Notes: generated by a model not told the origin, from the letters alone. 43,714 bases of DNA, filler included, from Jimgerdemannia flammicorona (GCA_003990765.1; 2 parts of 2 records of this genome joined end to end with filler, not necessarily neighbours in it), one strand, 5' to 3'; shown: positions 32,105-35,867, counted from the first letter of the whole stretch. Numbers and translations: made by a program.

Positions 32105-32160
32105 CCGGTCTTGGTTGCTGTAAACCAACTGATGAGCCCCTTAAGCAAGGGCGAAACCGG
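32105..32160 (+). ncRNA. Type III hammerhead ribozyme 1
   Basis: CCGGUC | stem I UUGGUU-gcugua-AACCAA | core CUGAUGA (32129-32135) | stem II GCCC(C)UU-aagc-AAGGGC | GAAA (32153-32156) | CCGG closing stem III. Predicted cleavage after GUC at 32110. Confidence 0.9.
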
Positions 32161-33049
32161 TCTATTAGGTCATCTCCATTCTATAATGCTTATATGTATT
32201 TTATGTATTTACTTAAACGAATATGTCCAAACAACAGTGTTGTTTAAGCTCCAACAATGATCTTGCTGGTGATGGTCATTATAAACACTAGCCACCGCCA
32301 TCGACCCTTGATGGACGAGGAGTCCATTTTGGTTGTGTGCCTGAAGCTTACGATTGAGAAGTTGCTCAGGTCTGAGAAGGAGAAGAGTAAAGGAAGAAGC
32401 TGCGAGTCATGTAGGTTGCGGACCAGGAGAAAGTGGGGATGGTGGTGTGAATTTGTAACTCGTGTTTTGTGTCTCACGTGAATAGGAAACAGAGTATAAC
32501 AGATTTGATACTCACCTCCTGATCTTCCCTCTTCCAGACTTCGTTGAATATCGGTATTTTCGCTGGTTGTCGGTCTTCTTCACACCACTGGAACAAAGTA
32601 AGGTGGGCAGCTTCTTGTTTCCAAAAGCCTTCATCAGATTTCAAGTAAGCTGCGAATGGCTTGCTCGGTTACTCGCATGTCAAGAGAAGTTCTGAGGCTT
32701 TTGCGCTAATGACCAGACGAAAGATATGGTTGTCGATTAGATAATGCGCTATGTCGATGTAGGTGATGACCCGTTCTTGGTCTTGTCTGATACGCTGCTC
32801 TGCAGCTCAGGATTGCGATTTGTCACGAATTACTGTCGTTTCGCCTTTTCACCAATTAAGGTATTATTGCGAGGAAAAATTGGTATGGGAGAGTCTTTGA
32901 ATCCTATTTCCTTTCATTTAGCTTATATATCCTTTAATATATTATATATATATACTATTCCATTTTCATATTTGTCTGTTTTGATATCGGATTACTGCAC
33001 TATTTCCTCCTTATCCTCCACCTTATCCCAGAAAGTCAACCTCTGATCG

Positions 33050-34527
33050 TTAAGCTCATCGTCATCTGTCTCGTATCTCGTCACACCTCCTTCTTCAAAC
33101 ACCAACAACTTAACCTTCCCACTCTACCGATGCTTCGCCCATGAGCGACAGGCCACCCGCCGCAAACGACGTCCACGCCTTGACGATATGATCCGATGTC
33201 CTGCTCTCCGCCTCTGTCAGCTTCTCCCTCCGTTTAAACACGAACGGCAGCTCGATCACGTGATGGATACCGAGGTTGAGCCCGGAGGTTATCTCGAGCC
33301 CGGAGGTTATCTCGATCAAGGAGTTGAAACGGTAGTAGTATAATTACCTTGCGACCAGTTGCCGCGAGCCGTCGCGCGGCATGCCGCACCGGGCCCAAAT
33401 AGGCGCGGTCGCCATGGATGTGTGCAAGGGCGAGGATCTGGGTATCATGGAAATCGGTGATCGGGTACAGCATCTCGGCTTGCCTGCTATGGTCGGGAAG
33501 GCCTTCGCGAGGGTGTTGTGGTATGTCTCCGCGATTGGAATGCCAGTCACAAAGATCGTTCCCTCGTCTGTGTTGTTGCCGACGATGATCTCAAGCACGT
33601 TAGGGTCAACATCGCCCTCGTTCAGGAGCGTACGAATCTCCTTATGGATATTTACACCGTCTATGGTACCATGCCAGCGGATCTTGGGGTTGGAGTTCGA
33701 TGCAATGCACGGGATGACCTTGATGAGCTTGTTGCTTGGGATACGATGGAGCTGGGCCAGGTGGTTGGGTGGTTTGATACCAAGCTCATCGCAGACGAGG
33801 TCGAAATCTTGGGAGTAGGTATAGTGAGTTTGATGCCGGACTGGAGGATCACGCATTGGAAGAGGTTGCGTGAAATGAAGAGGTGAAGGAGGATCGAGAG
33901 AGAGCCGGCAGAATTGCCAAATGCTGTAATATGGGAGGCATCACCTCCAAAGAGGCAGATGTTTTCTTTCACCTAATGTCAGTAAAGCAAGTGTACGAGG
34001 AATTGCATTGATTAATTTTTGAGGAATGTGGCTGCACAATACATTCTCTGACTTACCCCATTCAAACGTCAATTGCTGATCCAGGAATCCATAGTTTCAG
34101 GCGCTCAAATCTCCGGAATCTTCCGCGAGCTAATGGGACGCCAAAAATCCGAAAATATTAACACGGTAGTTGATCGTGACGAGAACGATGGGTTTGGAGT
34201 CGACTAAGTTTGATCCATCTACAATTATAGAATGCAATGAATATGAAGGCAAATGACATCCAAGAATTAGTGCGAGGTAATATCAAACAATCGAAGCCAC
34301 GACATTTCAATCGAACTATTTACCAAGAGCAGGTTTACATCCGTTTCCATTCCTAAACCCTCCGCCAAAAACATAGGCCATGACCGGCCAGCCTTCCTTG
34401 GGCAGTGTCTGCATAGGCCGGCGTCAGACATTCAGGTTCAGGCAGTTGTCTTCATCGCCTACGGTCTCGGTATCAGCGAGGATAGCGTCGAGGCCACGGG
34501 ATTCTTCAGGCTGTGGGCATTTGGGGC
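33050..34527 (-). pseudogene. Type-B carboxylesterase/lipase (COesterase family) pseudogene, intron-containing
   Basis: PKCPQ, EDNCLNLNV* (TGA where Trp is expected), [50 protein letters not shown] (GxSxG), GNNTDEG, GIHHVIELPFVF. It has stops, frameshifts and an 18-bp tandem duplication at 33278-33313; the first exon was not found. Confidence 0.9.
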
Positions 34528-35809
34528 TGGACGTTGGAAGGACGAAGTAGTTTTGAGTTAATTACGGATGTCGGAAGAAATCCATGGTCAACGACATTTC
34601 AAAAGTTTGGATTATTTGTCAGCTCTTCAGTAGGAGATGGAGCGTCACGCGCCTTGCTGCTCAAAATGATGAGCCACTTCGATTTCACGCTCGTTTGCCC
34701 GTATCGACTCAAGACACTCACGGAGGCAGTTGACACGTTTGCGGAGACTTTTCCACAATGCATGGCGTTTTGCCATCATACCTGCTCGAACACCGTATGT
34801 TTTACGGGTCAATCTCCAGTAGGATCGATGGAAAATGGGTTCTCGAGTCGTCGTTTCAGAAGATGGCAAGATTGTTGAGCTTCAATAGGGAACATAGATA
34901 TAAAAAGCACGGCTTTCCGTCCCCAGGACGAAGGCTCATAGCGCTCTATGCTAATGGAGCATTGTCGTTGCACTGGTGTTAAGTTATTCCTGAAAAATAT
35001 GTAATGACATGTTATTCCAAATAATAAAGCAATTCTTTGACGTAGTTAGAATGAGGAGTCTCCGTTCCTTAGGTGTAAGGGCACGTGCCCTAAAATCGAC
35101 GCGTCCCAAATCTTGGGCCAAGTCCTTAACCGGAAAGTACGCGTAAGAGGTATCCATAAGGACTTACGGGCCTGTAGGGTTAGAAATCTTTAAGGTTTTG
35201 TTGGCCGATAGCCAGAAAATCAGTACAAATAGTGGGTTCCGGCAATCGTAATAAAGATCCGCCTTGAAATCTTGAATAAGCTCGCGTATTCGCAAGATCG
35301 GATATCCAAGGAATTCACTCGTTTTTGTGGAACTGCACTGTACTCCGCTTCAAAGACAAAAATGTAATTTTTGTAAACGAACCGGAGACCTACTATATTT
35401 ATAACGTTCTTCTCCCAACCTCATGTGGCGGCGACAAATGAAGAAATGAAGATGAATGGCTACCATATAATACGGAAATATAAACAATGGACAAAATCCC
35501 AAAAATGAAAGGCTACATAAACGGACGCGAAAGAGGCATCCGTACGTGGACATATCGTGCGCTGCCTACGTAAAGCTTTGCCGAAAGTACAAGTGCTTGT
35601 GAATGAGTAAGTTCTCTACAGCAATGTAACACATACAGAAGCTATTTGGAAGGTGGACTGGTCCGAGGTGGGTGGAGCGACACGATACGAAGTTACATAT
35701 CCGCGAGGTCCGCAGTTTAATGTACCTAGTCCCCAAGTAACCTTCGTGTACCAACCTGCTTCGAGTTCGCGCCTAAGCGTGACCTTCTGGCGTCTCCATC
35801 GAATGTAAA

Positions 35810-35867
35810 ACCGGTTTCGCCCTTACTAAGGGGCTCATCAGTTGGCTCTATAGTTACCAAGACCGGT
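35810..35867 (-). ncRNA. Type III hammerhead ribozyme 2
   Basis: Minus strand: ACCGGUC | stem I UUGGU-aacuauaga-GCCAA | CUGAUGA (35841-35835) | stem II GCCC(C)UU-agu-AAGGGC | GAAA | CCGGU. Predicted cleavage between 35861 and 35860. Confidence 0.9.

Follow-up and report, generated by a model that had tools for sequence, protein, structure and literature searches.

Two type III hammerhead ribozyme motifs in Jimgerdemannia flammicorona DNA and their likely membership in a family of short dispersed repeats

Two hammerhead motifs on either side of a carboxylesterase gene or pseudogene

We analyzed a 43,714-nucleotide (nt) stretch of DNA from Jimgerdemannia flammicorona (GCA_003990765.1; two parts of two records of this genome, joined end to end with filler), referred to below as the window, which carries two type III hammerhead ribozyme motifs in opposite orientation 3.7 kb apart. 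Hammerhead A lies at 32105..32162 on the plus strand and hammerhead B at 35810..35867 on the minus strand. Both motifs were found exactly where an earlier reading of the same sequence (the original prediction) had placed them, on the same strands and with the same cleavage sites. Each contains every core element of a hammerhead, namely the GUC triplet, CUGAUGA, GAAA, and the A15.1-U16.1 pair. The topology is that of type III, in which stems I and II are closed by loops and stem III is open.

In A, stem III pairs 32105-32109 with 32156-32160 (CCGGU/ACCGG; 5 bp plus one G.U pair) and is followed by C32110 at position H17, after which cleavage is predicted (32110|32111, C32110/U32111). Stem I (32111-32116 with 32123-32128) carries a loop 1 of 6 nt and leads into CUGAUGA at 32129-32135; stem II (32136-32139 with 32149-32152, GCCC/GGGC) carries a loop 2 of 9 nt, and GAAA stands at 32153-32156. 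On the minus strand, B has a stem III of 6 bp (35866-35862 with 35815-35811, plus A35867-U35810), H17 at C35861 with predicted cleavage at 35861|35860 (C35861/U35860), and stem I at 35860-35856 with 35846-35842 around a loop 1 of 9 nt. These are followed by CUGAUGA at 35841-35835, stem II at 35834-35831 with 35822-35819 (again GCCC/GGGC) with a loop 2 of 8 nt, and GAAA at 35818-35815.

The two motifs are real and non-random in this window. In a 5-kb search, the Rfam model Hammerhead_3 (RF00008) matched B along its full length, including all core positions and the three helices (45.3 bits, E = 8.6e-8), and matched A locally over model positions 7-48, from stem I to GAAA (24.1 bits, E = 0.085). 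Minimum free energy (MFE) folds of RNAs of 70-71 nt (70 nt for A) gave the three-way junction for both copies. We also wrote a strict type III descriptor by hand. It demands both core strings (CUGAUGA and GAAA), minimum helix lengths of 3 bp for stem II and 4 bp for stem III and the stem I hairpin, and U followed by H (not G). This descriptor found exactly two sites in the window, A and B, and none in 2,000 shuffles made in 500-nt blocks; a loose pattern found three matches vs. 0.31 expected. Our own covariance model, R1, which had both copies in its training set, scored A at 61.1 bits and B at 66.1 bits and returned no further copy in the window, the next match reaching only 11.6 bits.

A and B share 87.9% identity over 58 nt (E = 2.6e-12), and this match is the sole repeat that ties the 31.5-36.5 kb region to the rest of the window. 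The original prediction had described intact cores, near-identical stems II and III, and differing loops and flanks, and the alignment of A with B agrees. Stems II and III are the same in both. The differences, about seven in all, affect the two loops (1 and 2) and the last two pairs of stem I before loop 1, one of which becomes U.G while the other is lost. Alignment of the flanks ends ~12 nt out, and the sequences are unrelated beyond. Because the differences are confined to the loops and loop-proximal stem I and the flanks are unrelated, the comparison fits constraint on the ribozyme alone.

Between the copies, CpG is retained, as had been claimed: the observed/expected ratio is 1.03 in 32100-35870, and transposon and AT-rich blocks elsewhere in the window have ratios of 0.01-0.36. 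The claim that no reverse transcriptase lies between them also held: 73 open reading frame (ORF) pieces of at least 45 aa from 31000-37000 yielded only fragments of a carboxylesterase (PF00135), and the longest ORF between A and B measures at most 198 aa. The carboxylesterase fragments lie on the minus strand in several frames at 33113..34282 (profile positions 121-150 at 34133-34282, 172-221 at 33664-33972, and 410-484 at 33113-33343). They represent a host-type gene or pseudogene, and in view of the several frames the window copy may be a pseudogene. Two small features were seen here, a perfect 18-nt tandem duplication at 33278-33313 and a 19-nt stretch of one contig, from the sequencing run X1 introduced below, that is missing from the window at 33802.

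The same region contains introns. One, on the plus strand at 32411..32537 (GTAGGT...CAG), is joined across by an X1 contig that connects 32410 to 32538 with GT..AG ends; it belongs to the context and not to the ribozyme. The transcript-like contig with this plus-strand intron spans from inside A to at least 33340. Intron-sized GT..AG joins occur in contigs on both strands, including minus-strand intron-like joints in the carboxylesterase region. Short GT..AG introns and the types of neighboring genes are consistent with a fungal window. Protein-atlas look-ups with one carboxylesterase piece and with the LINE-type reverse transcriptase described below yielded no usable taxon.

Hallmarks of a surrounding element were sought near both copies. 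No target-site duplication was seen at the ribozyme borders of A or B, which may not coincide with the borders of an element. No direct repeat the size of a long terminal repeat (LTR; 300-400 bp) was found in 30-38 kb, and there is no tandem array at either site. A consensus motif for a tRNA-Met primer-binding site (PBS) had no match with two or fewer mismatches near A or B and three matches window-wide vs. 4.1 expected; no polypurine tract (PPT) was found either, although no search was aimed at one.

Related copies in sequencing runs and metagenomes

To place A and B among other copies, we used X1 and X2, two sequencing runs that derive from this organism or a close one and contain partial shares of the window (0.29 and 0.07). 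Their contigs were aligned to 31-37 kb; such contigs cannot reveal RNA ends, and parts without cover (e.g., 36226-36828) are uninformative. Contigs that fitted only partly made up 70 of 143 in X1 and 80 of 160 in X2. Loose contig ends fell at 32159, close to the 3' border of A, four times in X1 and seven times in X2; the unlike sequence beyond had a median length of 138 nt and 189 nt, respectively. Further loose ends near A lay at 32121 (one in X1, three in X2), 32155 (one), and 32103 (two). Summed word depth in the bin of A was 4954 in X1 and 3882 in X2, with 141/161 and 3/5 in the neighboring bins, although such a sum is not a copy number; the excess over the neighbors, 30-fold in X1 and >700-fold in X2, is likewise not a copy number. 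Because the contigs share the core and then diverge at the ribozyme borders, the ribozyme is a multi-copy module rather than a private pair.

Around A, the recurring sequence has rough borders at 32004..32215 on the plus strand, from ~100 nt upstream to ~53 nt downstream of the ribozyme. A 414-nt X1 contig follows 32028-32215 with 22 other letters and two gaps (~88%) and then diverges rightward, and one contig in each run begins to match at 32004 after more than 200 unlike letters. Upstream of B, in the orientation of B, a 416-nt X2 contig represents a diverged second copy of 35840..36214 on the minus strand (34 other letters, 13 gaps, ~88%). This one contig weakly suggests that B belongs to a unit of ~0.4 kb with the ribozyme at its 3' end. 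Taken together, these two single contigs point tentatively to repeat units of 0.2-0.4 kb that would surround A and B and carry the ribozyme close to their 3' ends.

A scan of metagenome contigs, in which the core with stem II was fixed and the letters of loop 2 were free, gave at least 120 loci. Among those listed, 47 carried a type III hammerhead with the same stem II (GCCC/GGGC) and a CUU..AA loop 2. Their contigs are eukaryotic and of fungal appearance; most belong to a single series of nine related data sets, and at least two further sets contributed single loci. Their stem I is mostly AGGGC/GCCCU vs. UUGGU/RCCAA in the window, and their stem III is GGGU/ACCC, CGGU/ACCG, GCAGU/ACUGC, or others vs. 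CCGGU/ACCGG, so that both stems differ from the window by compensatory changes. In 42 distinct rows, 91.6% of cells were paired, and six pairs (22 cells) had changed on both sides. Among 500 shuffles, none reached the paired share, the number of doubly changed cells, or the covariation score, and one reached the number of doubly changed pairs; slid controls were 10-53% paired. RNAalifold independently returned the three-way junction from 49 sequences, and in several subfamilies the distal extension of stem III, judged by eye, alters its sequence yet stays complementary. The original prediction would have fallen had other copies neither conserved nor co-varied the stems; in the 47 listed loci, stems I and III co-vary.

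In these metagenome relatives, the ribozyme is found at the 3' edge of dispersed, ~0.4-kb repeats that are non-coding. Among the listed loci, eight had long flanks, in which similarity runs from 360-381 nt upstream of CUGAUGA to ~45 nt downstream and then ends, and the full unit measured 402-424 nt in seven of the eight. At L019, L033, and L049, the ribozyme ends are identical and the downstream flanks are all different. The contig itself ended 56-124 nt upstream of the core in 11 of 49 listed family loci, as expected where assembly breaks inside a repeat. Some subfamilies have only the ribozyme and a few tens of nt in common. The ~0.4-kb units are non-coding and highly structured.

The surroundings of these units are those of ordinary eukaryotic DNA. 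In 70 of the 134 neighboring ORFs of at least 130 aa, the portion that was scanned, we found eukaryotic host genes (HMG box, WD40, VPS28, F-box, TPR, and a gag fragment) and no reverse transcriptase. A regular-expression search over all listed loci found no second ribozyme near family members. At L088 (1-120), the unit directly abuts ~22 nt that match the 5' start of the unit and then diverge, the only such case among the 47 listed.

Two ideas about the units were tried and set aside. The metagenome unit starts with a B-box-like GGTTCGATTCC, a motif that is not enriched in the window (seven matches vs. 4.0 expected), and ARAGORN detected no tRNA when applied to the window, to 15 loci, and to seven units treated as circles. 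Terminal redundancy as the sign of a circular template fared no better, since the flanks of the 46 listed loci other than L088 match the unit start no better than control flanks do.

A probable dispersed ribozyme module and competing explanations

We consider it somewhat probable, at roughly 55%, that A and B are separate, diverged copies of a type III module that forms the conserved end of dispersed repeats of a few hundred nt, non-coding and non-autonomous, both in this genome and in fungal-type genomes related to it, and that their opposite orientation reflects insertion history rather than the structure of one 3.7-kb element. By simple arithmetic, ~100 copies in tens of megabases would yield roughly one pair within 4 kb by chance. 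The original prediction had spoken of termini or tags of a non-autonomous mobile family. The tag reading is supported, as the metagenome copies lie at one end of short repeats; the termini reading is not, given that no duplication was seen, only the ribozyme is held in common, and an intron-bearing, host-type gene lies inside.

If this reading is correct, a polymerase that crossed a copy in the sense direction would produce an RNA that could fold into the three-way junction and cut after GUC, at 32110|32111 on the plus strand and 35861|35860 on the minus strand. The products would be an upstream RNA with a 2',3'-cyclic phosphate and a ~50-nt ribozyme body with downstream RNA bearing a 5'-OH. 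The ribozyme could in this way trim element RNA from longer transcripts, and where units stood head to tail, a unit-length RNA would be released that could be circularized as in retrozymes. On this reading, self-cleavage, the mode of mobilization (retro or other), any circular RNA, and present activity of the window copies are putative.

Several observations weigh against this interpretation. Both copies matched Hammerhead_3, the check that had originally been proposed, yet their 45.3 and 24.1 bits are lower than the gathering score of that model (48.5), and a default Rfam scan of the whole window at the gathering threshold listed no hammerhead. Self-cleavage of A and B is a prediction from the motif. 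Fold energies are ordinary (z of −1.2 and −0.9), and within 135 nt of context the MFE folds of both copies are not hammerheads. In A, that fold predicts a competing hairpin at 32090..32110 on the plus strand (32090-32096 with 32104-32110), so that the upstream segment 32090-32096 could mask the 5' strand of stem III and the cleavage site. The GT..AG joins suggest that X1 and X2 are RNA; the kind of run is otherwise a guess.

The metagenome relatives have weaknesses of their own. Invariance of their core and stem II was imposed by the search pattern and carries no weight, and kinship among them inflates the shuffle statistics. Judged by eye, the ends of the eight full units bear no consistent signature of a Helitron, terminal inverted repeat (TIR), or LTR (TG..CA), and no consistent poly(A) or target-site duplication; no PBS was found in the relatives either. 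Near the 43 family loci matched by R1 (100 loci searched, up to 2.5 kb a side), no second ribozyme appeared, and partners at 3.7 kb would lie beyond that range. The body of the ~0.4-kb unit has no similarity to the window, where the ribozyme core alone matches, and carrying the element architecture over to the window therefore rests on the two single X1 and X2 contigs. Finally, a 3'-terminal type III ribozyme would sever itself from the element RNA; the cleaved linear RNA therefore cannot be the source of new copies, and the life cycle is left unexplained. By analogy, the copying of full units would be accounted for if the template were a circular or multimeric RNA, which has been proposed for retrozymes (PMC4918200).

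Among the alternatives, the one that survives best is that A and B are domesticated, cis-acting processing sites, inward-facing RNA "gates" that would cut transcripts reaching the gene island from its transposon-rich surroundings or trim local 5' ends. Each ribozyme is indeed in sense orientation for transcription into the interval, and the contig with a canonical plus-strand intron that runs from inside A to at least 33340 is in line with such transcription. Still, neither cleavage nor transcript ends are in evidence, contigs cannot show ends, and contig cover downstream of B is scant. This explanation would also suit the normal CpG content of the interval between heavily CpG-depleted flanking repeats, as well as the conservation of the ribozyme but not of its flanks. 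The presence of the module in many unrelated contexts, on the other hand, is mobile behavior for which no local function is needed, and we regard processing sites as improbable.

Another explanation, which we find slightly more doubtful, is that both copies are inactive, hammerhead-shaped relics: their repeat family would have died out, and the remnants would neither fold nor cut where they now lie. Flanks diverged beyond recognition, scores under the Rfam threshold, and longer-context folds that favor other pairings would all be explained. Yet the core is complete and nearly all stem pairs are intact in both copies, while the loops differ, a pattern that would be unlikely had the ribozymes been drifting for as long as their flanks.

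It is very unlikely that the ribozymes are the inverted termini, resembling pseudo-LTRs or TIRs, of a single 3.7-kb non-autonomous element. The interior consists of a host-type carboxylesterase gene or pseudogene with introns, transcripts on both strands, and no reverse transcriptase, and no direct repeat flanks the outer ends. A 58-nt inverted repeat of 88% identity does bracket the interval, and ~12 further outer nt align weakly, but the X1 and X2 contigs share the core or short flanks and not the whole interval. Moreover, none of the 43 R1-matched family loci has a second ribozyme in the flanks searched (up to 2.5 kb on either side). The precedent of Penelope-like elements, which carry hammerheads in their flanking repeats, is weakened by the fact that those hammerheads are type I (PMC4209133).

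Least probable of all is an origin as endogenized and since scattered fragments of a fungal ribozyme-bearing RNA replicon (a viroid-like RNA, ambivirus, or similar): type III is typical of infectious circular RNAs, including ambiviruses and mitoviruses (PMC13725137), A and B lie on opposite strands a few kb apart, and the summed depth of the core in the runs is very high, but there is no long ORF or polymerase between the copies, where an intron-bearing carboxylesterase lies instead, two scans of viral contigs gave no matches and then 36 loci, none with a like loop 2, and the metagenome relatives occur in ordinary eukaryotic contigs as unit-length repeats with fixed ends.

The preferred interpretation, a dispersed type III module, can be compared with several known systems. 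In plants, LTR retrozymes have two direct LTRs of 300-400 bp, non-coding and each with a type III hammerhead, together with 4-bp target-site duplications, a tRNA-Met PBS, and a PPT (Cervera, Urbina and de la Pena 2016, PMC4918200). They are non-autonomous, isolated single-ribozyme units are common, and their non-ribozyme sequence is highly variable (PMC4918200). According to a 2026 preprint, retrozymes have been reported primarily from plants (10.64898/2026.07.22.740005). The copies described here share with them a genome-encoded type III ribozyme, non-coding repeats, solitary units, variable bodies, and a non-autonomous nature. Unlike plant retrozymes, the window copies are inverted, have 58 nt in common, and have no PBS near them and no visible duplication, and the metagenome relatives are single units.

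Hammerhead-bearing interspersed repeats have been described in the yeast Yarrowia lipolytica (Perreault et al. 2011, PMC3088659). Like these, and like animal non-LTR retrozymes and the Schistosoma elements that resemble short interspersed nuclear elements, the present units are short, multi-copy, and non-coding, with one hammerhead each. The unit at L088 that abuts the start of another recalls the tandem animal elements, although this is one of the 47 listed relatives. In contrast to the animal elements, which are type I (PMC4209133; 10.64898/2026.07.22.740005) and mostly tandem, the ribozymes here are type III and the copies are dispersed and single. The hammerheads that Penelope-like elements carry in their flanking repeats belong to type I; those of animals are minimal, and fungal ones have a long helix III (Cervera and de la Pena 2014, PMC4209133). 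One metagenome locus, L042, resembles these in its type I-like order with a palindromic ACCGGU helix III, but the window copies differ from Penelope-like terminal repeats, which flank a reverse transcriptase (and often GIY-YIG) ORF, in their type III topology and in having no reverse transcriptase in 31-37 kb. In fungi, type III hammerheads are known from viroid-like RNAs, ambiviruses, and mitovirus-like agents (PMC13725137). The type III fold, the fungal setting, and the occurrence in both polarities are shared with these replicons; the present copies differ in being DNA-encoded, multi-copy, and placed among ordinary genes with no polymerase gene between them.

Genomic mobile hammerheads have thus been documented in plants, as the type III of LTR retrozymes, and in animals, as the type I of tandem retrozymes and Penelope-like elements. 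The fungal reports that we found concern the Yarrowia interspersed repeats and the type I hammerheads of Penelope-like elements, with type III coming from RNA replicons. Our literature search, which covered few subscription journals so that a prior description is possible, found no DNA-encoded type III hammerhead repeats described for fungi. A DNA-encoded, multi-copy type III module in fungal-type genomes would, if true, fill this gap and could be a genomic source or sink for the ribozymes of fungal viroid-like RNAs and ambiviruses. Neither retrozyme model accounts for the architecture seen here, a short unit with one ribozyme at its fixed 3' end and no known transposition hallmark.

A wider conjecture, which we offer only tentatively and consider rather unlikely as a whole, is that these repeats are a fungal counterpart of retrozymes. 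They would be non-coding elements of ~0.4 kb whose sole conserved part is a 3'-terminal type III hammerhead, without LTRs, PBS, PPT, poly(A), or target-site duplications. Their spread would involve RNA, perhaps in the form of abundant circles that the ribozyme excises where units adjoin, and at least two lineages would contain them, that of the window and that (or those) from which the metagenome contigs come. The window copies would then be old members in which the ribozyme alone is under selection.

Other hammerheads and neighboring repeats

The metagenome scan also returned hammerheads of other kinds. At L042:2490-2560, stem II and loop 2 are those of the window and helix III has the letters ACCGGU, but the order is type I-like. 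Stem I is open in this arrangement, helix III consists of a palindromic mini-hairpin with a single pair, and the whole resembles the dimeric minimal hammerheads of Penelope-like elements. This locus may link type III and type I-like architectures. A separate multi-copy type I family, with stem I GCCACA/UGUGGC and contigs from another source, includes L003, L014, L017, L018, L022, L029, L034, L035, L038, L055, L064, L120, and other loci. Two type I copies lie ~340 nt from each other in L034, and a variant whose stem I differs occurs twice in L077. This family looks like animal-type tandem retrozymes.

Elsewhere in the window, copies resembling long interspersed nuclear elements (LINEs) occupy 16000-21700 on the plus strand, 5250-8500 on the minus strand, and 38000-43714. 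The only reverse transcriptase of the window is a LINE-type ORF at 19.0-20.2 kb (RVT_1, 19001-20245) beside an Exo_endo_phos piece (18332-18763). An inverted, older LINE-like copy has 64-67% identity. None of the window LINE copies shows similarity to the ribozyme flanks. They have a strand GC skew of about ±0.5, CpG observed/expected ratios of 0.03-0.36, and a raised (CpA+TpG)/(ApC+GpT). By these compositional measures, their decay is CpG-specific and is not the classical signature of repeat-induced point mutation.

Two AT-rich blocks, at 10200-16000 and 21700-28000, have a GC content of 27-31%, CpG observed/expected ratios of 0.01-0.06, and no ORF of at least 110 aa with a Pfam match; they are probably very old, heavily mutated repeats. 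In AT-rich DNA to the left of the gene island, internal direct repeats of 70-82% identity occur at 28100-28625 with offsets of ~120-280 nt. Just left of the island, at 30760-31190, lies a degenerate tandem array of at least 12 copies of a 19-nt unit (GTCCAGTCCACGTTCGCTC-like), and length variants of this array are present in contigs of both X1 and X2.

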